DNA of 64,000 nt from contig OZ253462.1 in NCBI GenBank assembly GCA_965261395.1, forward strand, positions 2,944,001-3,008,000. The letters are read 5' to 3'. The position numbers were made by a program, and so were the translations under genes. The notes beneath the pieces are model-generated. The model searched no databases, had not been told where the DNA came from, and saw only the letters and a list, made by a program, of their open reading frames with translations. The DNA is from Candidatus Latescibacterota bacterium (GTDB taxonomy: Bacteria; Latescibacterota; UBA2968; UBA8231). Below are positions 3,818-47,492 of this stretch, piece after piece; the first letter of the stretch is position 1, and each line of letters starts with the position of its first letter.

Positions 3818-5341
3818 ATGCGTTCAGTTTTTGCATTTGTACTGCTGCTAGCAGCCCCCCTCCAAGCCGAGTTGCGTCTTTCGACCCTGACCGAAGCCCA
3901 AGTCGGCAATCTGCCCGGCGCACAGCCCAGCGATTTGCGGACGATCTACCATCAGTTCAGCCTCGACTATGCAGTCGCCGATCTCCAGTTCGGAGTTCGC
4001 GGCGAGACCTTCGGCGCTAGCGCCTCCAGCCGCAACTATGGCGAGCTTCTCCAGCGCTCCGCTGTCTATCGCCGGAGTGGCTTCGAGGCCACCGTCGGGA
4101 ATTTCTACACCATCGTCGGCAGCGGCCTGCTCCTCCACGCCTTTGAACTGCCCGGCGTCATCACCGAGGAGCGGGGTCGCCGTCGCCGCTACCAGATCGT
4201 GCGCGACCTCGATGGCGTTCAGGTGCGCTACCGCGCCAAGCGGGCCGAAGTGTTGCTGTTGCGCGGTGCGCCGATCAACAGTGCCCTGCCGCCCGGATTG
4301 GAGGGGATTGACCGTCGGCCGGACGCGCTCCACGCTGGCTCGCTCCAGCTCAAGCCGCACCCGCATTTCGACGTTGGTGTTAGCGCCATCCGCTACCCAG
4401 CCGGCAGGCGGCAAGAAACGAGCGCGGCCTTCAATGCCCGCTGGCGACTCGCGTCTGTGCTGGCTCGCCTCGGCCTCGCCGGAGTCTATGCCGATGTCCA
4501 AGGCGAGTACGCTCAGCGCGATGTGGCGCTCAAGCGCTTCTTTTCGCTCGACCGCAGTTTGGGCCGCGCCCTGTATCTGGCGGTCACCTTGGCATCTGGG
4601 CCGTGGGGATTGAGCTTGGAATACAAAGACTACGAGGATTTTGCCCTCGAACACATCAACAATCCGCCGCCCCTGATCCGCGAACACTCGGCCTATCTCC
4701 TCAACCGCATCACGCACGATGTGCTCGCCGACGACGAGCAGGGCTACCAAGCCGAACTGAGTTACGCCCTACCTAGCGGCCAAACCCTCACCACCAATGC
4801 GACTCGCGCCACGCGCCGCGGCGACCCAGGCGCAGCCGACGACAATATCCTGCGCGAATTCTTTGTGGAGGTGGAGTCGCCCTTGGGGCAACGCGCCGAT
4901 GTGCAGCTTTTTGCCGACTTTAGCCACAATCAGATTCTCCTCGACGACAAGAGCCGCCTCTTGGGCACGCACTGGGAGTGGTTTCCAGACGGGTCCTACA
5001 CCTTCGAGTTCGACGCCCAGTTCCAAGACGTCGATCGGCGGTTCGGCGACCTCGCGCTTCCTTACACCAATCACTACTATGCGCTAGCAGTCCACCGCGC
5101 CCCCAGTCTCTCCGCCGCCGTGCAGATTCAGCGCACCTCCGACGAATTGGAAACCGGGGCCGATCCCTCTGGCATCACTTGGTGGCGGGGCCTCAACATC
5201 GGTGCCGACATTGGCGAGGGCCACATCATCAATGTTTTCGCCGGCCAGCGCCGCTCGGGGCTAGCCTGCACGGCGGGTATCTGCTATGAGGTGCTAGGGT
5301 TCAAGGGCGTCGAAGTCCGGCTGCTCAACCGCTTCTTCTGA
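3818..5341 (+). CDS. putative outer-membrane beta-barrel (DUF6029-like)
   Basis: Signal peptide; VGNFYTIVGSGLLL motif; C-terminal GLACTAGIC and terminal Phe; adjacent to redoxin genes. Confidence 0.6.
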   Translation: MRSVFAFVLLLAAPLQAELRLSTLTEAQVGNLPGAQPSDLRTIYHQFSLDYAVADLQFGVRGETFGASASSRNYGELLQRSAVYRRSGFEATVGNFYTIVGSGLLLHAFELPGVITEERGRRRRYQIVRDLDGVQVRYRAKRAEVLLLRGAPINSALPPGLEGIDRRPDALHAGSLQLKPHPHFDVGVSAIRYPAGRRQETSAAFNARWRLASVLARLGLAGVYADVQGEYAQRDVALKRFFSLDRSLGRALYLAVTLASGPWGLSLEYKDYEDFALEHINNPPPLIREHSAYLLNRITHDVLADDEQGYQAELSYALPSGQTLTTNATRATRRGDPGAADDNILREFFVEVESPLGQRADVQLFADFSHNQILLDDKSRLLGTHWEWFPDGSYTFEFDAQFQDVDRRFGDLALPYTNHYYALAVHRAPSLSAAVQIQRTSDELETGADPSGITWWRGLNIGADIGEGHIINVFAGQRRSGLACTAGICYEVLGFKGVEVRLLNRFF

Positions 5342-21316: not shown

Positions 21317-24300
21317 CGGCTCATCCCCGCGTGTGCGGGAACATATTGCAGAGAGTCGCGGCGTAACAACTTCACCCGGCTCATCCCCGCGTGTGCGGGG
21401 AACATTTAATAGTTTGCCACATAATGTGGTTAACTAGCGGCTCATCCCCGCGTGTGCGGGGAACATACAATGTGAAATCTACGCTGGGGCACCGCATCCG
21501 GTTCATCCCCGCGTGTGCGGGGAACATCACCATTCGCAGATCGTAGTCGTTCACGCTAACGGTTCATCCCCGCGTGTGCGGGGAACATCAGGTTCATCGG
21601 ATATAGAGCGCCAGCGGCGACGGTTCATCCCCGCGTGTGCGGGGAACATTTGGTAGGCAACCCCCCATCATTGGACCAGGCCGGTTCATCCCCGCGTGTG
21701 CGGGGAACATATGCTGATGCTGGCGAGGGCGAAGGGGTTCATCCCCGCGTGTGCGGGGAACATCTCGACAAGGCCCGCGACCGGTCAGCCAAGACCGGTT
21801 CATCCCCGCGTGTGCGGGGAACATATGGTGGAGGTCATAGTCACCCTCTCCAAGCTCGGTTCATCCCCGCGTGTGCGGGGAACATTTGCAGATGTTGACG
21901 GGTGCATAATGCGTATCCGGTTCATCCCCGCGTGTGCGGGGAACATGATGTAAATTTCCTGTGTCGCGCGCCGTCTGCCGGTTCATCCCCGCGTGTGCGG
22001 GGAACATTTCACGCAGGCGGCCAAAGAAGGCAACGTCCGCGGTTCATCCCCGCGTGTGCGGGGAACATTCCCTGGTCTGCCGAACCGAATCGCTAAAATC
22101 CGGTTCATCCCCGCGTGTGCGGGGAACATATTAACGCTCATAGCATCCAGCCCCACCACGCCGGTTCATCCCCGCGTGTGCGGGGAACATGGGGTCAGAA
22201 TACCCATCAGGATATTTCCTTTCGGTTCATCCCCGCGTGTGCGGGGAACATCGCCCCAAGTGGTGCATCATGCACACCAAGGTCGGTTCATCCCCGCGTG
22301 TGCGGGGAACATTGCTCAATCCAAGTCGAACCCGATCTTTCGAGCGGTTCATCCCCGCGTGTGCGGGGAACATCGGCCTCAGTCCCTCTACAATAACATG
22401 ACCATCGGTTCATCCCCGCGTGTGCGGGGAACATCAACAGCTCGAAGACCTCATCGTCAGACAACTCGGTTCATCCCCGCGTGTGCGGGGAACATTGGTG
22501 GTGGTGGCCCTCCGCCGCCGATGTAAACGGTTCATCCCCGCGTGTGCGGGGAACATAGATTATGTATATATCGGCGCAACATCTACGCCGGTTCATCCCC
22601 GCGTGTGCGGGGAACATACCATGGCAACGCAAAACGTATTTCAGATCATCGGTTCATCCCCGCGTGTGCGGGGAACATCCACTTCGGTTTTTTTGAACGC
22701 GAAGGCTTCCCGGTTCATCCCCGCGTGTGCGGGGAACATCCACTTCGGTTTCTTCGAACGCGAGGGTTTTCCGGTTCATCCCCGCGTGTGCGGGGAACAT
22801 ACGACCTAGGATACAATTACAACTCAGCCGGCCGGTTCATCCCCGCGTGTGCGGGGAACATCAAGTCTCAGCCGAGCCCCATTTCTTCTCAGACGGTTCA
22901 TCCCCGCGTGTGCGGGGAACATAAAAACTCGCCTTTTTTGATCGCGTTGAACGCCGGTTCATCCCCGCGTGTGCGGGGAACATAAGCTCGGCCCCATGAC
23001 GTTGCGGTACTCTAACGGTTCATCCCCGCGTGTGCGGGGAACATCTGGGGCTTGAGCCTATGTCGGGGTCGCTTATCGGTTCATCCCCGCGTGTGCGGGG
23101 AACATTCGCAATGCCTTATTGCTTTGCGCGTCAACGTCGGTTCATCCCCGCGTGTGCGGGGAACATCTCCCTGTCGTCAAGGTGAAACAAGGTGCGACCG
23201 GTTCATCCCCGCGTGTGCGGGGAACATTTCGCGCAAGCCCTTTGCCGCTTCTGCGATCTCGGTTCATCCCCGCGTGTGCGGGGAACATTTCGTCAAAGCC
23301 TTTATGCTCGCCCGCAAAGCCGGTTCATCCCCGCGTGTGCGGGGAACATATGCTTGTAACCTTCTGAATGAGGTTGCAAGGCGGTTCATCCCCGCGTGTG
23401 CGGGGAACATTTCCCTATCGAGCAACAGCAGAGAATCAAAGTCGGTTCATCCCCGCGTGTGCGGGGAACATATCTCCTTCTTGACCGCGCTCGCGTCGAT
23501 GTCCGGTTCATCCCCGCGTGTGCGGGGAACATTTCGCATCTGAGCGCGTCCAGCACAAATTTCCCGGTTCATCCCCGCGTGTGCGGGGAACATTTTCGTC
23601 AAAGCCTTTATGCTCGCGTCGATGTCCGGTTCATCCCCGCGTGTGCGGGGAACATATGCAAGCAACCTGCTGAATGAGGTTGCAAGGCGGTTCATCCCCG
23701 CGTGTGCGGGGAACATCTATTGTATTGATTGTATTGAAACGCGAAACACGGTTCATCCCCGCGTGTGCGGGGAACATTAGGGTCAGTATCCTGCGAAGCG
23801 ATGCAATCCTGGTTCATCCCCGCGTGTGCGGGGAACATAAGCAACTGACGTATTGTATTGACGCGAAACACGGTTCATCCCCGCGTGTGCGGGGAACATT
23901 GTAAAGGAATCGCTCGCCGACTCGCTGCCGACGGTTCATCCCCGCGTGTGCGGGGAACATATCGCCAGTCAATGCAGTCCGGTAGAGTCAAGCGGTTCAT
24001 CCCCGCGTGTGCGGGGAACATACGGCGAAACTGCTCGACACCTATGTCGATAGCGGTTCATCCCCGCGTGTGCGGGGAACATACGCCGGGACAATCCGGC
24101 AAAACGCTTTACCACGGTTCATCCCCGCGTGTGCGGGGAACATATACAGATCAGATCAGATCAGATCAGATCAGCCGGTTCATCCCCGCGTGTGCGGGGA
24201 ACATTTTAAAATAGTGGTGGAAAGTGCTTGACAATGCGGTTCATCCCCGCGTGTGCGGGGAACATAAAAGGCCAGCGGTTAAAATTTAACTATTGACCGG

Positions 24301-25424
24301 TTCATCCCCGCGTGTGCGGGGAACATGTTTAACTCCCCTCACGGGAGGAGCCTATCACCGGTTCATCCCCGCGTGTGCGGGGAACATGCGCGCTCGGGGC
24401 TTTTCTCGATGCGCGTTTTCGGTTCATCCCCGCGTGTGCGGGGAACATAGGTAGGCCGTGTACGGCCCGGTTGCCGATACCGGTTCATCCCCGCGTGTGC
24501 GGGGAACATCGGTTTAACTGCCATTGCTGGCAGCCCATCACCGGTTCATCCCCGCGTGTGCGGGGAACATTGCGATAGGGAGCGCGTTTATTGTGCGTGT
24601 TACGGTTCATCCCCGCGTGTGCGGGGAACATTCTCAATTATTGCTTGTGTTGGTATCGGCTACCGGTTCATCCCCGCGTGTGCGGGGAACATCGGTTTAA
24701 CTCCCGTCGCCGGGAGCCCATCACCGGTTCATCCCCGCGTGTGCGGGGAACATTTCTGCAAAGCCTTTATGCTCGTCCTCAGGGCCGGTTCATCCCCGCG
24801 TGTGCGGGGAACATTGTAAAGGAAACGCCCGCCGGCTCGTCGCCGACGGTTCATCCCCGCGTGTGCGGGGAACATTCCGGTTGGAACAAGGTAGGTTTTT
24901 CCTGCTACGGTTCATCCCCGCGTGTGCGGGGAACATGTGTGGGCTGAACTTTGGATCAGCCCGTGCGGCGGTTCATCCCCGCGTGTGCGGGGAACATCCT
25001 TGTGAGTGTGCTGCGTTTCCTGGGCTGAGCGGTTCATCCCCGCGTGTGCGGGGAACATAATATCGGCCAGCTTGGCCGATACAATGTTCGCGGTTCATCC
25101 CCGCGTGTGCGGGGAACATTGAGCAACTTCGGCAATCAGCAAGGCAAGGGCCGGTTCATCCCCGCGTGTGCGGGGAACATCCTCTATCGTCAAGTATCTC
25201 TGGGTGCTGCGTCGGTTCATCCCCGCGTGTGCGGGGAACATCGGGTGCTAATGGCGTTGAATAGTGCGAGTAGCGGTTCATCCCCGCGTGTGCGGGGAAC
25301 ATCTGGTATTCTTCGTCCAGGTGTTTGCGAGCATCGGTTCATCCCCGCGTGTGCGGGGAACATAATACCCGCACTCACATGAGGTAAATTTCAATCGGTT
25401 CATCCCCGCGTGTGCGGGGAACAT
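21317..25424 (-). CRISPR. type I-E CRISPR array, 68 repeats / 67 spacers
   Basis: 29-bp repeat CGGTTCATCCCCGCGTGTGCGGGGAACAT (+) = ATGTTCCCCGCACACGCGGGGATGAACCG (-), 61-bp period, mostly 32-nt spacers (one 24 nt, one 33 nt). Degenerate CGGCTC repeats at the 21317 end mark the trailer. Confidence 0.99.
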
Positions 25425-25529
25425 ACTTAATCGTAACTGCTTGCTACAGTTTAGGTTATATGCCATGCAAAATAGCTACCGACTATTTGACCCCCGATTC
25501 ACCCACTCCACATATGCCGAGAACATACT
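25425..25529 (-). promoter_or_regulatory. CRISPR leader
   Basis: AT-rich non-coding segment between the cas2 stop and the conserved end of the array. Confidence 0.8.
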
Positions 25530-25808
25530 TCACTCAGGCAAAAAAGATACGAGTCGAAGACCGTCAAAATCCACAGGTATCCGGCGGTTTGTGCCAAAGG
25601 TTTCAAACTCAAACCCCGCGTCATTGGGGGCGGCCCAAGCAATCACAGCATCACCGTCGCCGATGAGCTCGCACACATTGTCGCGGATCATAGCGCGGGT
25701 CTTTGCCGAGTAGTTGCCGATATAGACACCGGCTCGAAGTTCCAGAAGCCAAACCGCGAGCCGGCCCCGCAGGCGCGGCGGCACATTATTAGTCACCACT
25801 ATCATCAT
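25530..25808 (-). CDS. cas2: type I-E Cas2
   Basis: PPRLRGRLAVWLLELRAGVYIG...VDFDGLRLVSF. Confidence 0.97.
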   Translation of the reverse strand: MMIVVTNNVPPRLRGRLAVWLLELRAGVYIGNYSAKTRAMIRDNVCELIGDGDAVIAWAAPNDAGFEFETFGTNRRIPVDFDGLRLVSFLPE

Positions 25809-26752
25809 CCTCGATGGCCCTCATCTCCGCTTGAAGGTGGATCGGCAAAGGCCGGGCCTACCGCATCATCTGGCATTTTCGGCGGCGGCAACTCGCCCGC
25901 TGCGAGCACTTCTCCGATGGTTGGAATCAGTCGCCTGAGCAGCTTGGTTCTGCGGAACGTGTCCCGACACGCCAAGCGCACTTCGCGCACAGGCTCGGCA
26001 GAACGCCCCTTCGCGTGCTGTCCCGCAATGCGAAACGCTGTCGGCACCGCCGTCTCAAATTTGAATAAATCGGCAATGTCGTACACAAAGGAGAGGGGTT
26101 TACCAGTATGCAAGAAGCCGACTGCTGGGGCATATCCAGCCGCGAGCACGGCGGCTTCCGTAATGCCGTAGAGGCAGGCAGTTGCTGCCGAGAGGCAGCG
26201 GTTGGGCACATCGGAGAAGTTCCAATCCGAAGGATCGTAGCTGCGCCTTTTCCACTGTACTCCAAACTGCCGCGCCAAATTCTCATAAAGCGCACGTACA
26301 CGCGCCCCCTCAATTCCGCGAAGCTGTTCGACAGAACGGCGTTGCGGCGCTCGCTCGTCAAATCGGATTTGATACATCCGCCGCACGATCTTCAGCCGAG
26401 CGTCGGGGTCAAGCGCGAGGCGGCACTGCCACAGAAGCCTGTCGGACCGGGCACCTCCCGGCTGACCAGCCGCGTATAGGCGCACCCCGGCTTCACCGAC
26501 CCATATCAGCAAAGTACCGACCCGTGCGGCGAGTGCCACTGCAGCATGACTGACCCGCGCACCAGGTTCGAGCATGATGCAAGCCAACCCGCCAACGGGG
26601 ATGTGCGTCCGCACCCCCTTTACATCTACGAGCACAAAAGCTCCATCGAGTACGTCGAGTTGGCCCTTCTCCACAAAAACGATAGAGGTGCGGTCCTTTA
26701 TGGGGATCGGCTTGGGGGGCGGAGCACCCGGCATTCTGTCAGGGCTAGCCAT
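25805..26752 (-). CDS. cas1: type I-E Cas1
   Basis: LEPGARVSHAA, VGEAGVRLYA, QLRGIEGARVR, GFLHTGKPLSFVYDIAD. Confidence 0.98.
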   Translation of the reverse strand: MASPDRMPGAPPPKPIPIKDRTSIVFVEKGQLDVLDGAFVLVDVKGVRTHIPVGGLACIMLEPGARVSHAAVALAARVGTLLIWVGEAGVRLYAAGQPGGARSDRLLWQCRLALDPDARLKIVRRMYQIRFDERAPQRRSVEQLRGIEGARVRALYENLARQFGVQWKRRSYDPSDWNFSDVPNRCLSAATACLYGITEAAVLAAGYAPAVGFLHTGKPLSFVYDIADLFKFETAVPTAFRIAGQHAKGRSAEPVREVRLACRDTFRRTKLLRRLIPTIGEVLAAGELPPPKMPDDAVGPAFADPPSSGDEGHRG

Positions 26753-26775
26753 CAAGCGATCCTGCGTATAAGCGA

Positions 26776-26865
26776 TGGTTCATCCCCGCATGTGCGGGGA
26801 ACACAGAGGTAGTCATCAGGCGATCCTGCGCATGAGTGGGTCATCCTCGCGTGTGCGGGGAACAT
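26776..26865 (-). CRISPR. mini-array (degenerate repeat-32 nt spacer-degenerate repeat) at the cas6e/cas1 junction
   Basis: Repeats 26776-26804 and 26837-26865; spacer 26805-26836 matches 26741-26772 at 26/32. Confidence 0.9.
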
Positions 26866-27608
26866 CTGCGTATAAGCATCAGGCCGCAGCCAAATGCCTT
26901 GCCGCGCCCGAATCCCTGCCGAAGGCGGGCGAGAAACGAGTTAGGCTCGGTTATGGTCAAAGCACCTTTGAGGTCGAATATGCCCAAAGTGCCGAATTTC
27001 CCACCGCGCCGTGCGAAACGCTCGGCTCGATAGCCTTCGAGCATCAGTGCGTCAAGGCAGAATCCGTATGCTTCGGCCCGCGCCGCTAGCCAGTCGTAGG
27101 CCGCCTTTTTGGCAAACTGCATCCGATACTTGGCGCGGTTGAGGGATTCATCCCCGCGTGTGCGGGGAACATTCTTGAGCAAGTCCATGGCCACATCGCA
27201 GCGTTGCCGTATGGCCGGTTCATTCCCGTGTGTGCGAGAAACTTTCCGATCGACCGTGGCGTTAAGGCGCAGATCGAACGCCAGCCGGTCTCCTGGCGAG
27301 AGTGTCGGCTCGAAGGGCTTCGTCTCGATAGCGAAGAAGGGAGAGTCTTCCAAAGGCTTGGGGCCGAGAAGATAGTACCGCCCGCGCTGGCGGTCGGCCC
27401 GCCAAAGAAACGCGGATTTCGGCGTACCGGCAGTCCGGCTCTGCTCTACCTCAGTACGCACATTTGGCGGGATGACCGTCCAGATCAGCCGGTGATCTAC
27501 CGCGAGGCGGTCAGACGACTTTGATGGCTGAAGGACCTGTAGCAGGGGAGCTATGTCTGCGGCGTCGCGCCGGAGCGTAAGACGCGAAAAGTGGAGTGGC
27601 TCACTCAT
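26841..27608 (-). CDS. cas6e: Cas6e (Cse3/CasE) with repeat-derived insertions
   Basis: HRLIW, LAFDLRLNAT, GFGRGKAFGCGLML Gly-rich loop. Confidence 0.95.
   Translation of the reverse strand: MSEPLHFSRLTLRRDAADIAPLLQVLQPSKSSDRLAVDHRLIWTVIPPNVRTEVEQSRTAGTPKSAFLWRADRQRGRYYLLGPKPLEDSPFFAIETKPFEPTLSPGDRLAFDLRLNATVDRKVSRTHGNEPAIRQRCDVAMDLLKNVPRTRGDESLNRAKYRMQFAKKAAYDWLAARAEAYGFCLDALMLEGYRAERFARRGGKFGTLGIFDLKGALTITEPNSFLARLRQGFGRGKAFGCGLMLIRRCSPHTRG
27144..27244 (-). CRISPR. two CRISPR repeats embedded in frame in the cas6e CDS, 43 nt apart
   Basis: 27144-27172 matches consensus at 27/29; 27216-27244 at 24/29. Confidence 0.85.
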
Positions 27609-28321
27609 TGCGAAGCCTCCTCTTGGTCAGTGGGAACGTATTCGTATTCGCGCCGTTGCCCGAACTGCCAGCTCGTGCGGTCGCCCGGCTCGTCCATCCG
27701 CAGTCGCATCCGCAAGGAAGCATCGAGAGGACCGAGGTCCGCCCGATCCTCCACGGCGATTAGGCCATTCGGCCCATCGCTATGGCGCTTGAACGCATCA
27801 ACGACCGTTTGTGCTTCAATGATCTCCGGCGCGAGTGGGTGGGACAGTGGGCAGGACTTGCGCCCTAAATACAATGTATAAGCTGGCTTCTCAAACCCAG
27901 CTTTGAGGTCCCGCAACGAGTATCGTCCGCCCGATATGGCTCGGTAAGCCGCCTGATAGCGCACATCTGTGCGGTACTCTCGGTGGGTGATACTCGTCGC
28001 AAGGTCCAAGGGATGGGAAAGTGCCTCCGCTCTAGTTCGGGGATGTCCCTTGGCCGAAGGCAGCGACTGGTAAGTGTGAAAATCCGTCACCAACGTCCCG
28101 GCGCACAGGGTGCGAGTAGCGACGCGGAAAGAGGCAGCAAGCGCCCGCTGCCCTTCCGCATCGGCGCGATCAATACCCAGCGCCGCGCCCGCCATCCCCA
28201 AAAGGGCAGATCGCGTTGGACGGTCGGCCGTGCCACGCCGCACATTGCCTGCCTCTTCGCCGAAGCTGGCAAAGGGTGCGGCCAAGGTAATAATTAACCA
28301 TTTCCTCGGTTCACCATTCAT
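27605..28321 (-). CDS. cas5: Cas5e (CasD)
   Basis: LAAPFASFGE...PTRSALLGMAGAALG, DFHT, REY, LYLGRKSCP. Confidence 0.96.
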   Translation of the reverse strand: MNGEPRKWLIITLAAPFASFGEEAGNVRRGTADRPTRSALLGMAGAALGIDRADAEGQRALAASFRVATRTLCAGTLVTDFHTYQSLPSAKGHPRTRAEALSHPLDLATSITHREYRTDVRYQAAYRAISGGRYSLRDLKAGFEKPAYTLYLGRKSCPLSHPLAPEIIEAQTVVDAFKRHSDGPNGLIAVEDRADLGPLDASLRMRLRMDEPGDRTSWQFGQRREYEYVPTDQEEASQ

Positions 28322-28353
28322 TTTAGTCCCTTCGGGAATATATGTGGTTCGTG

Positions 28354-28443
28354 CGGTTCGTCCCCGCGGATACGGGGAACATCCTACGTGTAGTTGGATG
28401 TCGTCGCTTCAATCCGGTTCATCCCCGCAGGTGCGGGGAACGT
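28354..28443 (-). CRISPR. mini-array (repeat-32 nt spacer-repeat) between cas7 and cas5
   Basis: CGGTTCGTCCCCGCGGATACGGGGAACAT (28354-28382), spacer 28383-28414, CGGTTCATCCCCGCAGGTGCGGGGAACGT (28415-28443). Confidence 0.9.
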
Positions 28444-28462
28444 TTTGCCAAATAGCAAATTG

Positions 28463-29521
28463 CTACAGTTCCTCCGCTGCGAAGGCGGCTAGCTCCTCCA
28501 ACATGGCACTATCCTCTTCACCTACATGGAGTTCGCTGGCTTCCCAATCGTCGTCGTAGGTCTTCGCAAAGGCGGTACGCTGCTTCTTGAGTACCTTTAC
28601 GGACTCCCCGAGTTGGTCTTCCGATTTTACCGGCTTGGTGAAGGCACTAGCCAAGCTGCGAGGTTGGCTATCCCCGCGCTCTAACAACATGTATTCGGCG
28701 CGTACGTGATTGGCGAAGCTGTTTTTCTTACCGGAAGGCGATGCGGTCGCCGCAGCGCGTACTAGCGCGGAGAGCGCACGGCCTGCCAGTTCTGTATCGC
28801 TCGCAAGATTTTCCAGCAGCAGGACCCTATTTACGCAGATGTAGAGATAGAAGACGCCAGCGCCGAAACCCGCCTCTCCGATGAAACCCGCGCCCGCATC
28901 CTCTTCTGGGGTCTTCAGATCGTCAACAGCCGTGTAGTAGTCATCTTCAATATCGACTCGGTTGGTGGTAAAGGCATGAGCCACTTGCACGGCGGCATCG
29001 CGGTTGAAGTCGGGGTTGTCAGCCAACATGCGCCCGAACATAGCAATGTCCACGGCACCGTCGGCAGTGCTTAGGACCTGTTTCGCCAGTTCCTTTTCCT
29101 TCGGTAAGGTTTCCCCGCTCAGTGCCTTTTCTGCCAAATCGAATGCAGCAGCGCGTTCCTCCGGCGAGATGAAGGCTAGCTGTTCGGTATAGGCCGGATT
29201 TGGGTCTTTCTCATTCTTTACTTTACCGAACAGAGCAGCGATGGTCCGGGCGATTTCGAGCGCCTTGTCCTCCGAAGCACCCTTTTCTAGCAGATGCTCT
29301 CGCACCTTGTCGCCCATACGCTGCGTGCGCTCGCCTAGCTTTCCCGTTAGGGCGGACCGGAAAGCGTCGTCCGTGCGGATGGCGCGTTTGAGGGCTTGGC
29401 TGGAAATGCGCATCCGCGACACACCGCCGATGAAAGCGGTCTTGGGACGGCCGAGGTCGTCTCGGTTGGGGTTAGACGGTGGATAGGCTGTCAGAACGTG
29501 CATTTGCACAAAGCGGCTCAT
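28463..29521 (-). CDS. cas7: Cas7e (Cse4/CasC)
   Basis: YPPSNPNRDDLGRPK, RISSQALKRAIR, DIAMFGRM, DYYTAVDD, PSGKKNSFA. Confidence 0.97.
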   Translation of the reverse strand: MSRFVQMHVLTAYPPSNPNRDDLGRPKTAFIGGVSRMRISSQALKRAIRTDDAFRSALTGKLGERTQRMGDKVREHLLEKGASEDKALEIARTIAALFGKVKNEKDPNPAYTEQLAFISPEERAAAFDLAEKALSGETLPKEKELAKQVLSTADGAVDIAMFGRMLADNPDFNRDAAVQVAHAFTTNRVDIEDDYYTAVDDLKTPEEDAGAGFIGEAGFGAGVFYLYICVNRVLLLENLASDTELAGRALSALVRAAATASPSGKKNSFANHVRAEYMLLERGDSQPRSLASAFTKPVKSEDQLGESVKVLKKQRTAFAKTYDDDWEASELHVGEEDSAMLEELAAFAAEEL

Positions 29522-30090
29522 AGTTGAGTCTCCTCTTGGGGTTGGGTGTTCTCTGCGGCATCGGTCCGCCGCGTGTGATAGTAATCAAAGGTCCATTTCT
29601 GCCGAGTCTGGTCGTTAAAGAAAAGCACATCGCCGATAAAGCGAGGAACGTCGAATGGCGCATCGCCCAAAATAGCAAGGGTCCGGCGCAGTGCCCGTGC
29701 GAACATGTCCACATCAGTGCCATCCTTGAGCAGGTTGCTGAAGCGCATGGGCGACAGGCGTGGACGGGCGTCGCCTTTGGGGATGGAACCATCCCACGTG
29801 AGGCCCAAGGCGTCAGCGAAGGGGGGGAGATGGGCGGTCCTCTCGGAGGGTTTAACCCGCGCAAGGGCCATAGCCAGCACGGCGAGGCGCTGCTCAAGCG
29901 CGTGGCCGGCGGTAGCCTTTTCATGCACACTGGCGATCAACCTGTGGGTTTCTGGCTCTAAGAGGGCGTCGAATACGCTTTCGCAGCGCTTCAGCCGCGC
30001 CCGTGCACCCCGGTCTCCGTGGTCCGCGTGAAGCGATACCCACCAGTTCACCACTGCATTGACGGTAGGGTTATTTCGGTTGAGCTGCAT
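29518..30090 (-). CDS. cas11: Cas11e (Cse2/CasB)
   Basis: DRGARARLKRC, LSPMRFSNLL, WTFDYY; position between cas8e and cas7. Confidence 0.92.
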   Translation of the reverse strand: MQLNRNNPTVNAVVNWWVSLHADHGDRGARARLKRCESVFDALLEPETHRLIASVHEKATAGHALEQRLAVLAMALARVKPSERTAHLPPFADALGLTWDGSIPKGDARPRLSPMRFSNLLKDGTDVDMFARALRRTLAILGDAPFDVPRFIGDVLFFNDQTRQKWTFDYYHTRRTDAAENTQPQEETQL

Positions 30091-31748
30091 TAAGCGGTCT
30101 CCTTTTTGGTTTTGGATTTTTTCTCTGGCAAAGGAAGTTCGAGCTTGTCGTAAAGCGACTTGCTCTGCTTGGTCCAGCCAGCAAAGGTTGCGTTCAAGAT
30201 GCCGTAGGCATTGACGATTGTCTTGGCCTTCTCGGCGTCTTGCAAGGGCACGGGTGCCAGTCGGTCAAAAGTCGCAAGGGCTGCGCGGCGCATGATACCT
30301 AGCCAGTGCCGTGCGAGAGCGGTCTGGTCGAAGCCCCCATCTTCGGGCATTTCTTGGAGCAGATCGTCGAGCAGGTGGTGGAATTGGTCCTCGGTTGCGT
30401 CGAAGAAATCAGCCCGCGCTTGGTCGAGAATCCCCTTATCGTTTGAGGCATTCTTCTGGCCGCTGAAAAGTGCCTTTTTCAAGGCTGTTAACAACTGAGA
30501 AACCGCTTGATCGGCGGCTTCGGAGAAATGTCGGGCGAGATCGTCGAGAGCCTGTTGTTGATCGGATGTATTCGCCAGATGCAAAGGCTCCTCGGCGATG
30601 AGATAGGCGATTGCTTCCATGTTGTTCATGGCCCAACCGCCAACGCGGATGCGAGCATCGGCCGCTTGTTTATTCTGGCTAAGGGAATGGGAGCGATTAT
30701 TCTTGGAGAGCTTGATATTTGTGGGCTGTTCAGCCAGCTTGCCATCCTTGCTCCCTACCGTGACGGCAACCCAGTCTCGATAGCCAAAGCGTCCTGATTT
30801 TGGCTTGGCCGAATACGGCTCCCCTGCCTCTTTCAGGCGGCGGTAGGGCGTCAGCGGATGCTGCCATAGCCCATAATTTGTGCCGTAGGGCCTCTGGATA
30901 AATCCGGTGACCAGCGGTTCTTTTCTGCCGGTCATGGAGCAGATGCCCGGCTCGCTGGAAAAGACTAGCTGGATGCGGCGCGGCATACCGAAATACGCCT
31001 GCAAGGGGTGGGCGTCTGCTAGAGATACAGTACGACTTTTTTCCGATGTGAGTGTCGGGGCCATCCAAGGCAGGGCCTTGGGCAACTCATCTATTGGGAG
31101 TCGTTTATCGCAAGGCACCACATTGGCGAAAATTTTGTGCCACAAAGGCACGGGCGTTGCATCGTCATTAGTCGCCGGAACGACCAGTGCCGTCAAAGGC
31201 CCGCCTCCACGCATGGAAGTGCGGTTCCCGGCACCGCCGGCCGGCGCGTAGGCTTGCAGGGTGTACAGCGTCATGGCCGCAGCCGGTAGGCCAAGGGCAG
31301 CATAGCGGTTGCGGTGAGTCAATAGGTCCGAGTTTTTGCGCTGGCCGTTTTGCCCTGGTGTGTCGATGAGCAGTAGTTCAATAGGAGTTTCGTTGCCTTG
31401 CAGGGGCTCATAGTCCTGTAGGAAGCGCGGCCCTTCGCCGTTGAGATAGAAGGCAGAAACAAGAGGGGCGAGCTTTTCGGCGAGCGCGTCTCTATCCGGC
31501 GGATTGGTCCAAAAAGGACGCCAGTCGTCCTCTTCGCGGATATCGAAGGCCAACGAAATCACGCCGATGCAGAACTCGAAGCTCGCCATGTTGAAATCCG
31601 GGCGCGGCCAGTTAAACTCGACCGGGTAGTCTTCATCCAAGCCGTTGCTTTTGGGTCCAGCCACTAGTTCGGGAAAGGCAAGCCATCTCTGTGCTCCAGA
31701 TCGCATGACGACCGGGAGAAAGGGATCACTGAGCAGATTAAAAGTCAT
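30090..31748 (-). CDS. cas8e: Cas8e (Cse1/CasA)
   Basis: FNLLSDPFLPV, PRFLQD, APAGGAGNRTSMRGGGPLT, MPRRIQL, HPLTPY; AAGGAG RBS. Confidence 0.96.
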   Translation of the reverse strand: MTFNLLSDPFLPVVMRSGAQRWLAFPELVAGPKSNGLDEDYPVEFNWPRPDFNMASFEFCIGVISLAFDIREEDDWRPFWTNPPDRDALAEKLAPLVSAFYLNGEGPRFLQDYEPLQGNETPIELLLIDTPGQNGQRKNSDLLTHRNRYAALGLPAAAMTLYTLQAYAPAGGAGNRTSMRGGGPLTALVVPATNDDATPVPLWHKIFANVVPCDKRLPIDELPKALPWMAPTLTSEKSRTVSLADAHPLQAYFGMPRRIQLVFSSEPGICSMTGRKEPLVTGFIQRPYGTNYGLWQHPLTPYRRLKEAGEPYSAKPKSGRFGYRDWVAVTVGSKDGKLAEQPTNIKLSKNNRSHSLSQNKQAADARIRVGGWAMNNMEAIAYLIAEEPLHLANTSDQQQALDDLARHFSEAADQAVSQLLTALKKALFSGQKNASNDKGILDQARADFFDATEDQFHHLLDDLLQEMPEDGGFDQTALARHWLGIMRRAALATFDRLAPVPLQDAEKAKTIVNAYGILNATFAGWTKQSKSLYDKLELPLPEKKSKTKKETA

Positions 31749-31770
31749 TGATATCTCCTTAAAATATATA

Positions 31771-31821
31771 ACTAACCAACAGCTTACTACATACTCTAAA
31801 GAGGCAATCGTACCTTGTCAA
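31771..31821 (-). promoter_or_regulatory. sigma70-type promoter of cas8e with adjacent ATG PAM and crRNA-like RNA target
   Basis: TTGACA (31821-31816), 17 bp, TAGAGT (31798-31793), then ATG (31792-31790) and TAGTAAGCTGTTGGTTAGT (31789-31771). Confidence 0.8.
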
Positions 31822-31842
31822 GGGCAAGTTGCGGTCCATCAT

Positions 31843-31919
31843 TAATTAATCCCCGTGTGTACGGGGAACACGTTAGCCGACAGCATACTACGGCTCATTC
31901 CCGCGTCTGCGGGACAACA
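31843..31919 (-). ncRNA. CreR/CreA-like crRNA-like regulatory RNA (degenerate repeats with a 19-nt spacer)
   Basis: Repeats 31891-31919 (overlaps the cas3 stop) and 31843-31871 with compensated stems; spacer TAGTATGCTGTCGGCTAAC matches the cas8e promoter region. Confidence 0.85.
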
Positions 31920-34633
31920 AATCTAAAGCCCAGTCGGGCACAGTACATAAAATAACCGTCATCCTTCGCCCCTTCCAATCGCACCCTACTGCCCCCTTCT
32001 ACCACGGCTATCAATATTTCGCGTTCCCACTCCGGCCAGTCGCTTTTGGCCTGCTCTTGAAGGGCTTGGTCCTCGGGCGATGGCGAGGCTCCAGCGAGAA
32101 AATTCTCCCGTACCCGGATTTCAGACAAGGCCCAAGCCCTGTTGGGATCGTCGTCGGGTACCGTGCACCAAGGAATAAGACGATCTTCCTCTATACGAGC
32201 CAAACGCAACATAACGGTCGGCTCTCCCAGCCGAGTGCCAATATCTTCTGTGCCGCTCAATTCCGTCGGCAGGCTACCGTAGCCCTCTTCTAGGCTGACG
32301 ACGTTAAATCGGCCCAGCGAGCGACTGCCCATTTCCTTCCCTTCGTCTTCGATTTGCTTTTCTTCAAGGGCTGGCGGCACATCCCCATTGGCGTAAACGT
32401 ATTCAATCAACGGGCGAAAACTTTCCGGCGTGTCAATACATCCAGCGTCGGACAGGGCCTTCGCGCTGCGCCACATCACGCCGGCATTTTGATAGACAAA
32501 CGCTGCCTTGCCGAGTGCCGGCTCAAGCCAGTTTTGGTCTTCTACCTGATCCGGGTCCGGCGAGACTATGAGGGTATGCGGACTCTCTACAGGGCGGCTT
32601 TCCGGTGGACGCTTGTCCAAATGACGCCACATCCGACCAGCGCGCTGGATGATAAGATCCACTGGCGCGAGGTCCGAAATGACGAGATCAAAGTCGAGGT
32701 CGAGGCTTTGCTCAACCACCTGCGTGGCTACAAGGATATGGCCGGCCCGGCCTGTCGCTTTGGCGTCGCGCCCGAATCGGCGCAATACATCATTTTCTAT
32801 GACCTGCCTATCGCTTTGGGCAAACCGAGCGTGGAAGAGGTGAATGTGATCTGGGTTGTCCATTTGGCCCACAAGCGATTCATATACAGCGATGGCCTCA
32901 TCTACTGCGTTGCAGATGACCAGCACGGCCGCTTCCTCTTTTGCTGCGGAGAGAGCTCGTGTCTCGGCGGTTATTCGGTCGGGCAGGCGTTCTACCGTTA
33001 CGCTACGACGCAACGCAGAATCGAATCCCGACTCGCATTCCTGTACTCCGCCGATTGTGGCCGAGGTGAGCAGCGGGTACGCCTCACTGCATAGTTGATC
33101 GCTCAGATCTTCTGGGTCGCGCAAGCCGAGACCCTTGGCAAACGCCTCTGCCATATCGCGACGTTGCTGCAGAGATAAGGTCGCAGAGAGCACTATGGCG
33201 GAGCCGCCGTTTTGGGCGTGAAGTTCCAGCAGCGCGGAAAGTTCCTCGCCCATATAGGCATCAAAGCAATGGGCTTCATCAACTATGAGGATGCGGCCAG
33301 CCAGCCCGTATTGACGCAAGGTTAGATGTCTTTTAGGGAGGATCGAGAGAAAGGCTTGGTCAATGGTCCCCGCTCCGACATCTGCGTAAAAGGCTTTTCT
33401 TCGGTCGTCTGCAATCCATTGGGCGCAAAAGGCGGATGCGGTTTCATCCTCGCTGCCATTGGCCATGTCAGTGGAGTTGACGATGGCGCGGAACGCCTCG
33501 GACAGGTTCGACCTGCCGTGTGCCAAGACGAGTGAGAGGTCTTCGGAGGCTGAAGTTTCAAACAGCTTCTGGTAAGTCACCGCCAGCCGCTCGTACATAG
33601 CGTTGGCCGTTGCCATAGTCGGCAGCGCAAAGTACAGACCCTCGCCTTTGCCCGCCGCCATCATCCGGGCTGCGAGCATGATGGCCGCTTCTGTTTTACC
33701 GGCCCCTGTGGTGTCTTCTAAGATGAACAACTGCGCTCCGTCCTTGAGCGGTGCTTCTTCCGCCAGTTTCTGCATGGGTCTTGGATGAGGGGCAGCTTGT
33801 GGAGCAAAACTAGCATAACTCGGACGGGACTCCGGGGACTGGGCCAGTAACCCCTTTCCCACTAGGGCTTTTTCGGCCTGAGTAAGCGCCCACTCCCAAT
33901 AGTCCTCCAGCCTCGTATCGACCGATTCAAAAGAGAAGTAATCGGAGTCTGAACCGACCCAGTCGGCCAGTGTGACAAGCCCTGACAAGCGCCAAGACCA
34001 CTGCGCCGTCTGCTTCTGCTTTTCGAGAGACGATAGAGGCAGAGGCTCTATCAGGTTCCGGAGCATACAAAAGGCAGTATGAGCCGCGTCCACGCATTCC
34101 TCACCAAGCTGCTGGTCGCGCCGAGCTTTGCCTGGATCGGCATTTACTTCATCCTGTCCCTCGGGTGGTCGTCCATGGTGCCCCGCAATGGCAGCAATGA
34201 TCGGTGCTATATCATAAGGGATGCTAGGGAATAAGCTGGCGAACTCTTGGGATATTGGCTCGGCCCTGAGAAGGATAGCCGTGTTGCGCCAATGACCACG
34301 GTCGGCGATTTCTCTCTTCGGGCCAAGGACCTGCTCTGGCCACAATTGGGGTACCTTCGCCTGAAAGCTGCGTGAAAATTTGCCAAGATCGTGTATGCCA
34401 GCCAGAAAAGCAGTGATCTTGGATAAGCACTCTGGACTCGCTTTCAACAAAGCGGCCTCGCGCTCAAGACGGGCAGGATTCAATTGCTGCCATCGCAGGG
34501 CGACAGCAGCGACATCCATCAAATGATGTAAGACAGGCTTATAGCTACGTGTATCATTGAATACAGTTTCCGAGGAATTGCCAGCACTACGAAGCGTCTT
34601 GCCCCAAAATTCCAAGAGGCGGGCGGCTTCCAT
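31895..34633 (-). CDS. cas3: Cas3 HD nuclease-helicase
   Basis: HLMDVAAV, HDLGK, HHG, DWVGS, TTGAGKTE, DEAH, LSAT, ATQVVEQSLDLDFD, QRAGR; likely start MEAARLL 1 nt after the upstream stop. Confidence 0.97.
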   Translation of the reverse strand: MEAARLLEFWGKTLRSAGNSSETVFNDTRSYKPVLHHLMDVAAVALRWQQLNPARLEREAALLKASPECLSKITAFLAGIHDLGKFSRSFQAKVPQLWPEQVLGPKREIADRGHWRNTAILLRAEPISQEFASLFPSIPYDIAPIIAAIAGHHGRPPEGQDEVNADPGKARRDQQLGEECVDAAHTAFCMLRNLIEPLPLSSLEKQKQTAQWSWRLSGLVTLADWVGSDSDYFSFESVDTRLEDYWEWALTQAEKALVGKGLLAQSPESRPSYASFAPQAAPHPRPMQKLAEEAPLKDGAQLFILEDTTGAGKTEAAIMLAARMMAAGKGEGLYFALPTMATANAMYERLAVTYQKLFETSASEDLSLVLAHGRSNLSEAFRAIVNSTDMANGSEDETASAFCAQWIADDRRKAFYADVGAGTIDQAFLSILPKRHLTLRQYGLAGRILIVDEAHCFDAYMGEELSALLELHAQNGGSAIVLSATLSLQQRRDMAEAFAKGLGLRDPEDLSDQLCSEAYPLLTSATIGGVQECESGFDSALRRSVTVERLPDRITAETRALSAAKEEAAVLVICNAVDEAIAVYESLVGQMDNPDHIHLFHARFAQSDRQVIENDVLRRFGRDAKATGRAGHILVATQVVEQSLDLDFDLVISDLAPVDLIIQRAGRMWRHLDKRPPESRPVESPHTLIVSPDPDQVEDQNWLEPALGKAAFVYQNAGVMWRSAKALSDAGCIDTPESFRPLIEYVYANGDVPPALEEKQIEDEGKEMGSRSLGRFNVVSLEEGYGSLPTELSGTEDIGTRLGEPTVMLRLARIEEDRLIPWCTVPDDDPNRAWALSEIRVRENFLAGASPSPEDQALQEQAKSDWPEWEREILIAVVEGGSRVRLEGAKDDGYFMYCARLGFRFVVPQTRE

Positions 34634-34634
34634 C

Positions 34635-35402
34635 TCAGCGGCCCATCCACCCGCCATCGACGATTGCGATGGTCCCATGGACGTAGTCGGCTGCTCGCGA
34701 CGACAGCCACACCACCGCGCCTTTTAAGTCGTCCGGCGTGCCCCACCGGCCCGCTGGAATCCTCACCAGTAGTTGCTCGTTGCGCACGGGGTCGTCGCGC
34801 AGGGCCTGATTGTTGTCGGTGGCGATATAGCCGGGGGCAATGGCATTGACGTTGACCCCGCGACCGGCCCATTCGTTGGCCAGCGCCATCGTCAACTGCC
34901 CGATCCCGCCCTTGGCCGCGGCATAGCCCGGCACTGTGATCCCGCCTTGGAAGGTCAGCACCGAAGCGGTAAAGACGATCTTGCCCCGGCCGCGGGAGAG
35001 CATCTGCTTGCCGAATTCCCGCGCCAGCACGAACTGCGCGTTTAAGTTGACCTCGATGACGTGATCCCAGTCTTCGTCTCCATGTTCCTCAGCCGGGGCG
35101 CGCCGAATGGTACCGGCATTGTTGATGAGGATGTCGATTGGGCCGACCTCGGTGTTGACCTGCTCGACGAAGGCGCGGACCGCTGCCCGGTCGCTGAAAT
35201 CGCAAGCGTATCCTTTGAAGCGCTTGCCGCGCTTGGCAATGTCTTTGCCGACCTCGGAGTCTACTTCCAGCGAGGCGCTGACGCCGACGATATCTGCGCC
35301 CGCCTCGGCCAATGCTTGCGCGAACCCGCGTCCGATGCCTCGACGGCATCCGGTGACCAGCGCCGTTTGGCCGTCGAGCTTAAAGAGATCCAAAATCCCC
35401 AT
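34635..35402 (-). CDS. SDR oxidoreductase (2-dehydro-3-deoxy-D-gluconate 5-dehydrogenase KduD-like)
   Basis: TGCRRGIG, NNAGTIRR, FQGGITVPGYAAAK, DGGWMGR. Confidence 0.85.
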   Translation of the reverse strand: MGILDLFKLDGQTALVTGCRRGIGRGFAQALAEAGADIVGVSASLEVDSEVGKDIAKRGKRFKGYACDFSDRAAVRAFVEQVNTEVGPIDILINNAGTIRRAPAEEHGDEDWDHVIEVNLNAQFVLAREFGKQMLSRGRGKIVFTASVLTFQGGITVPGYAAAKGGIGQLTMALANEWAGRGVNVNAIAPGYIATDNNQALRDDPVRNEQLLVRIPAGRWGTPDDLKGAVVWLSSRAADYVHGTIAIVDGGWMGR

Positions 35403-46580: not shown

Positions 46581-47492
46581 ATGTACAGAATCATCTTCGT
46601 TTCGCTTGCAGCGTTGTTGGCTTGCACCGATCCAGAAGGCCCACAAGGCCCTGTAGGTCCCGTAGGCCCCCAAGGCGAACAAGGCCCGCAGGGCGAACAA
46701 GGCGAACAGGGCGAACAGGGCGAACAAGGGCCACGAGGCCCGCAAGGTGAACAGGGTGAACAAGGCGAACAAGGCGAACAAGGCGAACAAGGGCCACGAG
46801 GCCCGCAAGGTGAACAGGGTGAACAAGGCGAACAAGGCGAACAAGGGCCACAAGGGTCACGAGGTCCGCAAGGTGAACAGGGCGAACAAGGCCCGCAAGG
46901 TCCCGCAGGCCCGCAAGAAGCTATAGGAACAGATGTCTTTAGTCTCTTTACGTTCTTTAGGGAGGACTTCAGCAATACAGATCCACTGGGGGATTGGACC
47001 AAACGAGGTACTGGAACTTGGCGAGTACAAGGCGGGAGACTAATTGGACTGGGTAGTGATAACCGTTATTTAACGAGTCTGACCGCAGACCCCGACTTTA
47101 AAGGACCACTCTACGTCACAGTCACGACCCAATGGCTTAGTGGTGTTAAGTACTCTATGTACGGTATCCGGTTTTATTCTGAGAGTAGGGATTTCTACGG
47201 ATTTAGTATAAGTGCCAATGGGAGTTTTGTATTAAGTCGATGGGATGACGGAGGCGACCCCATATCACTGGTTGATTGGACTTATAGCTCATCCATCAAT
47301 CAAGAGGGAACCAATGAGCTAAGTGTTTTTATTGAAGAAAGCTGGATAGAAGCATACATCAACGGAATTCTCGTCGCTGGGGTCTTTAACAACGCCTACA
47401 CCAAAGGAAGCGTAGGTGTCCTAATAGGAGGAGACCAAACAGTGGCCTTCGACGATCTGACCGTAGGGGCGACCATTCCTTTGTCAGACTAG
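46581..47492 (+). CDS. collagen-like lipoprotein with C-terminal beta-sandwich (DUF1080/concanavalin-like)
   Basis: LLAC lipobox, ~31 Gly-X-Y triplets (46638-46916), AGGAG RBS, lower GC. Confidence 0.85.

Follow-up and report, generated by a model that had tools for sequence, protein, structure and literature searches.

A complete type I-E CRISPR-Cas operon lies in the window analysed here, the whole 64-kb stretch of Candidatus Latescibacterota DNA that corresponds to positions 2944001-3008000 of a single-contig 6.55-Mb genome (G000). At the junction of cas6e and cas1 the operon contains a single repeat-spacer-repeat unit, the spacer of which resembles the sequence that the unit interrupts. 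An uninterrupted form of this site is known elsewhere, and the locus thereby illustrates how small arrays can originate within a cas gene cluster. The junction unit is composed of 92 nucleotides (nt) together with a 12-nt target duplication, and is located in the overlap of the cas6e stop codon with the cas1 start codon. Coordinates are those of the window unless stated otherwise, and the operon, its repeat-derived elements and the main array are all on the minus strand.

Read on that strand, the order of the parts is protospacer nt 1-11, repeat RA, spacer, repeat RB, TC and the full protospacer. The ATG at 26877..26879 is the protospacer-adjacent motif (PAM) of the ancestral protospacer and is found in 8/8 uninterrupted alleles; by direct reading only 11 nt of protospacer now follow it (CTTATACGCAG, 26876-26866). 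PAM base -1 and these 11 nt form the upstream copy of the duplication (GCTTATACGCAG, 26866..26877), which contains the last native codons of cas6e, the gene reading ...CTG ATG CTT ATA CGC AG before RA. Repeat RA (ATGTTCCCCGCACACGCGAGGATGACCCA, 26837..26865) is followed by the 32-nt spacer (CTCATGCGCAGGATCGCCTGATGACTACCTCT, 26805..26836), repeat RB (GTGTTCCCCGCACATGCGGGGATGAACCA, 26776..26804) and the filler TC (26774..26775), which separates RB from the downstream copy of the duplication (GCTTATACGCAG, 26762..26773), comprising a G and the start of the full-length site. The full-length protospacer-like site, CTTATACGCAGGATCGCTTGATGGCTAGCCCT after the G (26741..26772), has TCG in the PAM position owing to the filler and spans the former cas6e stop codon, the AGGA ribosome-binding region of cas1 and the cas1 ATG at 26752-26750. 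The same arrangement can be parsed as a duplication of the 14-nt sequence ATGCTTATACGCAG whose downstream copy has gained one C, an alternative that destroys the PAM equally.

The repeats were compared with that of the main CRISPR array downstream of the operon (21317-25424; 67 repeats, ATGTTCCCCGCACACGCGGGGATGAACCG, with 32-nt spacers). Each is identical to it at 26/29 positions, with differences at 19, 26 and 29 in RA and at 1, 15 and 29 in RB, and the two differ from one another at 4 positions. They are direct repeats with the strand and orientation of the array, enclose a spacer of the canonical 32 nt, and were also reported as a pair by independent repeat finders (family D13; period-61 row 26746-26864). 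These results establish that the repeats and spacer of the junction unit truly belong to the resident type I-E system. The spacer matches the adjacent junction (26772-26741) at 26/32 positions, with mismatches at 3, 6, 18, 24, 28 and 30, and the next best ungapped match among the 13.1 million positions of the 6.55-Mb genome, both strands included, is 23/32. The resemblance of the spacer to the junction is not due to chance. The structure had been described in a first-pass annotation of the stretch, and every detail of that description (the 26/32 match and its six mismatch positions, the 12-nt duplication, TCG before the full copy and ATG before the 11-nt copy) was reproduced by script. Many mini-array repeats, at 26776-26865 and in operons of congeners (G011, G021, G005b and G008), end in CCA compared with CCG for array repeats, a feature that may be common to non-array repeats in the genus. 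In Escherichia coli the last base of the repeat is taken from the PAM.

Uninterrupted junctions and the source of the spacer

To obtain the junctions of relatives, 60 related genomes were searched for Cas1, and the 30 other species of the genus were searched at the DNA level. Seven close operons were found in 6/30 congeners, with 90-93% Cas1 identity and the same chromosomal context. The junction unit is absent from 7/7, the sequence at the junction being ATG followed by CTCATA(CGCAG/AAAAG/AAAGG/AAGAG)G.... The first-pass annotation had predicted that insert-free operons would encode ...LMLIRRIA with a stop codon overlapping the cas1 ATG, and Cas6e was found to end in ...LMLI(K/R)(R/G)(I/V)A-stop in all seven. 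The flanks of the insert overlap by 12 nt when placed on the operon of congener G003; the event therefore consisted of the insertion of 92 nt accompanied by a 12-nt duplication.

A degenerate pattern for the 3' end of cas6e identified a metagenome contig (L049) with the same junction lacking the insert, in which ATG directly precedes a 32/32 protospacer. This junction is identical to that of the window for 47 nt upstream and 62 nt downstream, and the rest of the operon is 86-90% identical. The seven close operons and the identical empty site bear out the earlier proposal that the ancestral junction was composed of PAM and protospacer, and that the unit landed there and split the PAM from its target. 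A survey of the class revealed 22 Cas1e loci in 19/132 genomes, and no repeat-like 20-mer (≤5 mismatches) was found upstream of the arrays in 14 further I-E loci of the class. Distant blastn matches of 26450-27100 to plasmids were confined to the conserved cas1 core at ≤74% identity, with none across the junction, and gave no indication of a plasmid origin. Nor was a leader-derived origin indicated, since the end of the leader, ...GATTAAGT, is without similarity to the flanks of the insert.

The stretch is contained in 20/24 listed runs from 8 studies, and four runs were examined. Gap-free contigs bridging the unit were found in X2 (25500-27670, 0 differences in 2171 nt; this may be the strain of the window), X7 (26634-27174, 3 differences in 541 nt, at 26684, 26690 and 26972, with 0 inside 26741-26879) and X8 (26655-26904, 1 difference in 250 nt), and for X9 there was no bridging contig among the matches listed. 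Since the bridging contigs are gap-free and come from three other public studies, the junction unit is not an assembly artefact. X7 and X8 represent other strains, differing from the window by 4.6% (168/3653, 27145-30809) and by 4.8-6.6% over cse1, whereas from mid-cas6e to cas2 they differ by ≤0.6% (at least 99.4% identity). In both, the change from divergent to near-identical operon sequence falls near 27145-27230.

The position of the insert is also a breakpoint of similarity among the operons of the genus. Over the 150 nt upstream, identity is 94-96% with G011, G021, G005 and G013 versus 76-88% with G003; over the 150 nt downstream, it is 90-95% with G003 versus 68-87% with the others. The operons of the genus are mosaics, with a second breakpoint around a repeat internal to cas6e (27322-27072 being closest to G008). 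One congener, G005, has two I-E operon copies on different contigs (L043 and L044), one with a mini-array between cas7 and cas5 and without that between cas3 and cse1, the other with the reverse.

The mismatches between spacer and junction provide information on the source of the spacer. Both copies of the duplication carry T3 and A6, and the spacer carries C3 and G6. Since T3 and A6 are present in both copies and the insert-free junction of L049 is unchanged, the mismatches predate the insertion and the resident site did not serve as the template of the spacer. The spacer shares its base with other alleles at positions 3, 18, 24 and 30, and only 6 and 28 are private to it; in cas6e, positions 3, 6 and 18 fall on the third base of a codon. 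Judged by its sequence, the spacer is an allelic version of the same junction and not a copy of the resident one. An allelic spacer, together with RA and RB that had already diverged while the flanks are unchanged, suggests that the unit is an old array unit with a spacer from the ATG-flanked junction of a related operon. The first-pass annotation had offered origin from a homologous cas operon as an alternative to insertion; the allele bases at 3, 18, 24 and 30 support that origin, which is compatible with insertion and no rival to it. Overall, the empty sites and the allelic bases make it highly probable that, as regards structure, the unit was inserted into its own protospacer and carries a spacer of allelic origin.

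The spacer also matches the junction of G003 at 26/32 positions. Outside every sixth position, where the base is flipped out in Cascade, the only mismatches are at 28 and 31; the PAM is ATG and the seed is perfect. A masked pattern (positions 6, 18, 24, 28 and 30; ≤3 mismatches) applied to 31 genomes of the genus detected only the spacer, the junction of the window and the junction of G003. Scans with spacer nt 7-27 in metagenomes and with spacer nt 1-23 in viral contigs each gave 0 matches. The sole match to spacer nt 1-23 in genome contigs was an exact 23-nt match (L048, 4896-4918) in a non-cas open reading frame (ORF) of an alphaproteobacterial metagenome-assembled genome. With no ATG before it and no identity beyond nt 23-24, it was judged to be due to chance; ~0.02 such matches are expected by chance in 596 Gb under a uniform base model.

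Possible effects on the expression of cas1 and cas2

The repeats of the junction unit differ in their predicted folding. The hairpin energies of RA, RB and the main repeat were -7.4, -14.4 and -14.3 kcal/mol, respectively. The stem of RA is interrupted by a C.A mismatch and its 8-nt 5' handle is altered at 2 positions, and RB folds as a normal repeat with a predicted Cas6e cleavage site. Read-in to RA changes the C-terminus of Cas6e from ...LMLIRRIA-stop to ...LMLIRRCSPHTRG-stop. The new TGA stop codon (26843-26841) is located inside RA and 87 nt upstream of cas1, while in all relatives the stop codon overlaps the cas1 ATG by one base, and translational coupling to cas1 has therefore been lost. 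The weak stem of RA may perhaps be explained by the fact that cleavage of RA would otherwise remove the stop codon of cas6e. Neither a promoter-like (sigma-70-like) nor a terminator-like site was predicted in 26500-27300, from which it follows that the junction unit would be part of the operon transcript.

The explanation favored here, to which we accord an even chance, is that of a captured, self-neutralizing array unit whose present effect is the Cas6e-dependent uncoupling of cas1-cas2. An array would have acquired a spacer from a related I-E operon, and the unit would be derived from such an array. Capture at the homologous site would have occurred either through repair of a lesion guided by CRISPR RNA (crRNA) or through homology-guided illegitimate recombination. 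The landing was not random, because the insertion site is the one genomic site that resembles the spacer; homology or crRNA guidance placed the unit. The insert starts after protospacer nt 11 and the other edge of the duplication is the last PAM base. The main cut of E. coli Cas3 is reported to be on the displaced (non-target) strand, 10-11 nt downstream of the PAM (PMC9427990). If a staggered lesion arose at the R-loop and array DNA served as filler or template in its repair, a picture of this kind would result. Five routes were considered that could not be made to fit the order of the parts: a single crossover of the spacer with the junction, an unequal exchange between sisters, the integration of a circular intermediate, out-of-register strand annealing after break repair, and crRNA-templated repair.

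Once inserted, the unit would have survived because it neutralized the near-self target. The promoterless unit would be co-transcribed with the operon, and a Cas6e cut at the RB hairpin is predicted to sever the cas1-cas2 mRNA from the Cascade genes, leaving cas1-cas2 on an RNA whose 31-nt leader still contains the AGGA ribosome-binding site. The intact RB is probably a Cas6e cut site that uncouples cas1-cas2, and its cleavage together with the loss of translational coupling would reduce the expression of the adaptation genes or uncouple it. A crRNA from the unit, if one is produced, would bind poorly to the two sites of its own locus and would recognize uninterrupted allelic junctions. If true, uncoupling of this kind would be an easy means of separating the adaptation genes from those for interference.

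Several observations weigh against capture followed by uncoupling. The source array and a 32/32 allele for the spacer were not found in the genome, metagenome, genus or viral scans, and the 12-nt duplication with the TC filler could not be explained in detail by any simple scheme of recombination. Strains that diverge by 4.6-6.6% in the upstream cas genes carry the unit without change, a constancy that could reflect selection instead of a recombination block common to them. The rules on PAM and seed by which the own sites are judged below are those of E. coli and not of this organism. A crRNA-like regulator with covariation is present in the same operon (MA3, described below), so that regulatory use of Cascade is not far-fetched. 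Finally, the location of 4/6 own-site mismatches at flipped-out positions (6, 18, 24 and 30; P = 0.002, uniform null) is as expected under selection for own-site pairing. This bias had been pointed out in the first-pass annotation, and its count holds; its meaning is confounded, since positions 18, 24 and 30 are polymorphic among operons without the mini-array. The every-sixth argument thus speaks only weakly for own-site pairing, because of that variation and because positions 3, 6 and 18 are third codon positions.

Possible alternatives: regulation, rival operons or accident

An alternative is that the unit is a CreR-like autoregulator, whose crRNA-like RNA would park Cascade on the start of cas1 without cleavage by Cas3 and hold down cas1-cas2. 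Degenerate mini-CRISPRs that repress cas genes are established in types I-B, I-E, I-F and V-A (10.1101/2023.03.03.530964; 10.1101/2023.03.10.532045), and a candidate of this kind is present in the same operon, which has three further repeat-derived elements besides the junction unit. The element between cas3 and cse1, MA3, was parsed as two repeats, a degenerate one overlapping the cas3 stop codon (31920-31891) and another at 31871-31843, with a spacer of 19 nt between them (31890-31872). The target of its spacer is ATG followed by TAGTAAGCTGTTGGTTAGT (31792-31771), mismatched at positions 6, 12, 15, 18 and 19, and this site immediately follows the -10 box of a promoter of the form TTGACA-17-TAGAGT. 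MA3 is conserved in 5/7 close operons and in L049, where spacer and target covary, both having G instead of A at position 5. These features make MA3 look like a textbook autoregulator of the cas8e promoter of the published kind. In G008 (L046, about 5160-5300 in operon orientation) the cas3/cse1 array has three repeats, containing the same 19-nt regulatory spacer and an extra 32-nt spacer between canonical-type repeats. An autoregulatory role of the junction unit would also be in accord with its unchanged sequence in the contigs of three further studies and with the fact that just 2/6 own-site mismatches fall outside the flipped-out positions.

The two sites of the junction unit are, however, unlike the target of MA3. 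The own ATG site matches at 9/11 positions, with a seed mismatch at position 3. The own full-length site, at which pairing extends to position 32, has the PAM TCG, and outside every sixth position its mismatches are 3 and 28, the former again in the seed; other targets of this operon family have the PAMs ATG and AAG. In E. coli, Cascade binding requires the PAM and a seed of at least 5 bp, interference and priming require more than 18 bp, every sixth base is unpaired, and repression by a Cascade roadblock is weak (PMC5904413). The consensus PAMs of that organism include ATG and AAG, and the repeat-derived CCG is inert, TCG being unnamed in the portion of the report available (PMC6568314). By these rules, which are those of another organism, both own sites look like poor Cascade targets, and the intact G003 junction would be a good one.

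The pattern of matching is thus the reverse of that in known regulators, a long distal match being combined with poor PAM and seed. The target lies within a transcription unit with no predicted promoter, and in E. coli a Cascade roadblock represses weakly. RA would have to be cut to provide the 5' handle, yet its stem is weakened and 2/8 positions of the handle are changed. The variation of positions 18, 24 and 30 in unit-free operons and the absence of the unit from the 7 close operons and the 14 further I-E loci of the class are likewise at odds with a regulator. The non-lethal Cascade roadblock on cas1-cas2 that the first-pass annotation had proposed is the weakest part of that reading and could not be upheld, and an autoregulatory function of the junction unit is considered unlikely.

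In a second alternative the unit is a selfish mini-CRISPR whose guide attacks the uninterrupted junctions of rival I-E operons, present on incoming DNA or as a second resident copy; its own allele would be immune through the insert, and recombinational repair from the allele with the insert could copy the unit by the logic of homing or a gene drive. The insert does sit in its own recognition site and empty alleles do exist, and the best effective target is the intact junction of G003, with its ATG PAM and perfect seed. The remaining two repeat-derived elements show a like pattern. MA2, between cas7 and cas5, consists of repeats at 28443-28415 and 28382-28354 with a 32-nt spacer between them and is common to G011, G021 and G005b. 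Its spacer matches the 3' end of cas7 at 27/32 positions in G003 and G013 and 26/32 in G008, with an AAG PAM at each, versus only 19-21/32 in operons of its own class and L049; at position 6 the spacer has a TGA stop codon where cas7 has TGG. The best own-genome target of the MA2 spacer, 21/32, is at the level of chance, and a 17/18 match at genome position 4,825,096, inside an ORF of ~1000 amino acids (aa), was set aside. The other element is an in-frame unit internal to cas6e, with a degenerate repeat at 27244-27216 (24/29, the handle being exact in its last 8 nt) and a near-perfect repeat at 27172-27144 (27/29, exact over its first 21 nt, the hairpin part), separated by 43 nt of the gene's own coding sequence. 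Decayed versions of the same two insertions, of 18 nt and 3 nt, occur in the cas6e of G008. The 43-mer matches G003 at 39/43 positions after AAG, and cleavage of this unit by Cas6e would mean that the enzyme cuts its own mRNA.

In the junction unit, MA2 and the cas6e-internal unit alike, the spacers are allelic versions of nearby cas sequence with a proper PAM, the best match being to G003 in every case. Such a pattern is consistent with homology-dependent capture, in which only operon-like spacers can land, or with selection for guides against rival operons. The latter would be in keeping with the two operon copies of G005, the mosaic operons with a breakpoint at the insert, and the insert-bearing 3' half, which keeps an identity of at least 99.4% among strains that diverge by 4.6-6.6% in the 5' half. 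On the other hand, L049, the sole empty allele identical to the flanks, has the seed mismatch at position 3 and offers no good target. The near-identical block of X7 and X8 covers all of cas1-cas2, so that no short conversion tract is apparent, and the likeness to G003 may reflect ancestral states. Moreover, 0/66 spacers of the main array match cas operons, which argues that targeting between operons is not general, and homing leaves the first insertion unexplained. Selfish targeting of rival junctions is accordingly regarded as doubtful. The same degree of doubt attaches to its extended form, in which the junction unit, MA2 and the cas6e-internal unit would constitute a set of anti-allele guides, each from a PAM-flanked site of a rival operon, placed at or beside the homologous location in the own operon and immune through disruption or divergence, the junction unit being a natural homing mini-CRISPR born at a Cas3 nick. 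If true, it would represent a new type of conflict between versions of one defence system, with allelic CRISPR-Cas operons fighting one another.

That the unit is an inert accident of illegitimate or repeat-mediated recombination with an array, giving no functional RNA and changing only 5 residues at the C-terminus of Cas6e, is agreeable with the degeneracy of both repeats, the weak RA hairpin, the confinement of the unit to one species-level lineage, the high mosaicism of the genus operons and the argument of Shmakov et al. that recombinogenic repeats generate mini-arrays at random (10.1101/2023.03.03.530964), but it is improbable considering that landing in one spacer-like 32-nt site of 6.55 Mb needs homology or targeting, that RB is by prediction an intact Cas6e-type hairpin for which cleavage within an expressed operon would be hard to avoid, and that the insertion removes a stop/start overlap kept by all relatives.

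Mini-arrays in cas loci are known as regulators, and their origin has so far been a matter of conjecture. Duplication of a terminal array unit and random generation by recombinogenic repeats have been suggested (Shmakov et al., 10.1101/2023.03.03.530964). Here both states of one event are recorded, a filled site with a 12-nt duplication and an identical empty site with an ATG PAM. Captured at such a site, the unit would provide a concrete route, open to testing, by which near-self targeting leads to a mini-CRISPR embedded among cas genes, with the breakpoint at the position of the E. coli Cas3 nick, and would indicate that such a unit can be born without yet obeying the design rules of a regulator.

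Genomic setting and comparison with known systems

All eight genes of the operon (8/8) pass their NCBIfam models. They are cas3 (31895-34678), cse1 (30090-31748), cse2 (29518-30090), cas7 (28463-29521), cas5 (27605-28321), cas6e (26841-27608, 255 aa), cas1 (cas1e, 25805-26752) and cas2 (cas2e, 25530-25808). A scan with the core motif of the repeat detected no other array or repeat-like site elsewhere in the genome, and a search of 25300-32100 against Rfam gave no family at E up to 0.1. In the main array 64/66 spacers are 32 nt long, and 0/66 match the seven related operons or the own genome outside the array; one apparent match, 'sp60', was rejected because it is a missed repeat and no spacer. 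The array also contains near-duplicate adjacent spacers at 22680-22800 (about 80% alike), a partial internal duplication of ~306 nt at 23198-23777 (1.9 copies) and an irregular unit near 21710-21735, and at its far end three older repeats end in GAGCCG, as does the repeat of G003. Far from the cas locus, Tandem Repeats Finder reported a GC-rich repeat with units of 9, 18 and 63 nt at 46664-46917 and a 126-nt repeat at 58622-59087 (3.7 copies, 97% matches), which, judged from the units alone, might encode collagen-like and WD40-like repeats respectively.

The junction unit was compared with several systems in which CRISPR repeats or spacers occur at unusual locations. Spacers directed against the host were reportedly described by Stern et al. 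in 2010 as tolerated through escape from autoimmunity. As in such cases, the spacer resembles host DNA and would survive because the PAM or target is disrupted and the adjacent repeats are mutated (PMC6990116). The junction unit differs from tolerated self-targeting spacers in lying outside the array and inside its own target, and the disruption is caused by its own insertion. Off-target integration by Cas1-Cas2 is said to have been described by Nivala et al. in 2018 as producing a 'neo-CRISPR', in which a host duplication of repeat length, ~28 bp, surrounds a single new spacer. A new repeat-spacer-repeat outside an array is common to both, but on the defining feature the junction unit departs from the neo-CRISPR, having true CRISPR repeats that differ at 4 positions and a host duplication of 12 nt. 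Solitary repeat units and RNA anti-CRISPRs are similar in that Cas6, among other Cas proteins, can be bound by repeat hairpins located outside arrays (PMC10651486; Shmakov et al.). They are phage-borne or stand-alone, in contrast to the junction unit, which has a spacer and is located in the mRNA of a cas operon.

Homing endonuclease genes and synthetic CRISPR gene drives lie in their own recognition site and thereby protect the allele that carries them. The junction unit likewise interrupts its own recognition site, and uninterrupted alleles occur in relatives. It differs in that the nuclease genes are around the insert, that the flanking site has a seed mismatch, that copying is only conjectural and that there is a 12-nt duplication; homing does not produce a flanking duplication.

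The closest comparison is with mini-arrays of the CreR/CreA type. Mini-arrays have been reported in about 19% of bacterial I-E loci, and the I-E cases described are located between cas3 and cas8e, their target being the promoter of cas8e with a canonical PAM and an intact seed (Shmakov et al. 2023, 10.1101/2023.03.03.530964; 10.1101/2023.03.10.532045). The main text of the mini-array literature, as far as available, makes no mention of a unit between cas6e and cas1, an adaptation-gene target, a spacer from an allelic cas gene or a filled and empty pair with a duplication, and the supplementary tables of Shmakov et al. may list I-E loci that have repeat-like sequences close to cas6e and cas1. 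The junction unit resembles the CreR/CreA type in being a leaderless, degenerate mini-array in a cas locus, with two repeat-like sequences, one of them degenerate, and a spacer partly complementary to the same locus. Four of six features of that type (PAM, seed, promoter target and conservation) are nevertheless lacking. As to covariation, the unit is present only in near-identical strains and absent from 7/7 close operons and 14/14 further loci. MA3 exhibits the uninterrupted seed and distally fading pairing of these regulators, whereas the junction unit does not. In contrast to them, the junction unit is lineage-specific, is located between cas6e and cas1 with a start codon as the target, combines a bad PAM or seed with a long distal match, and has a known empty site.

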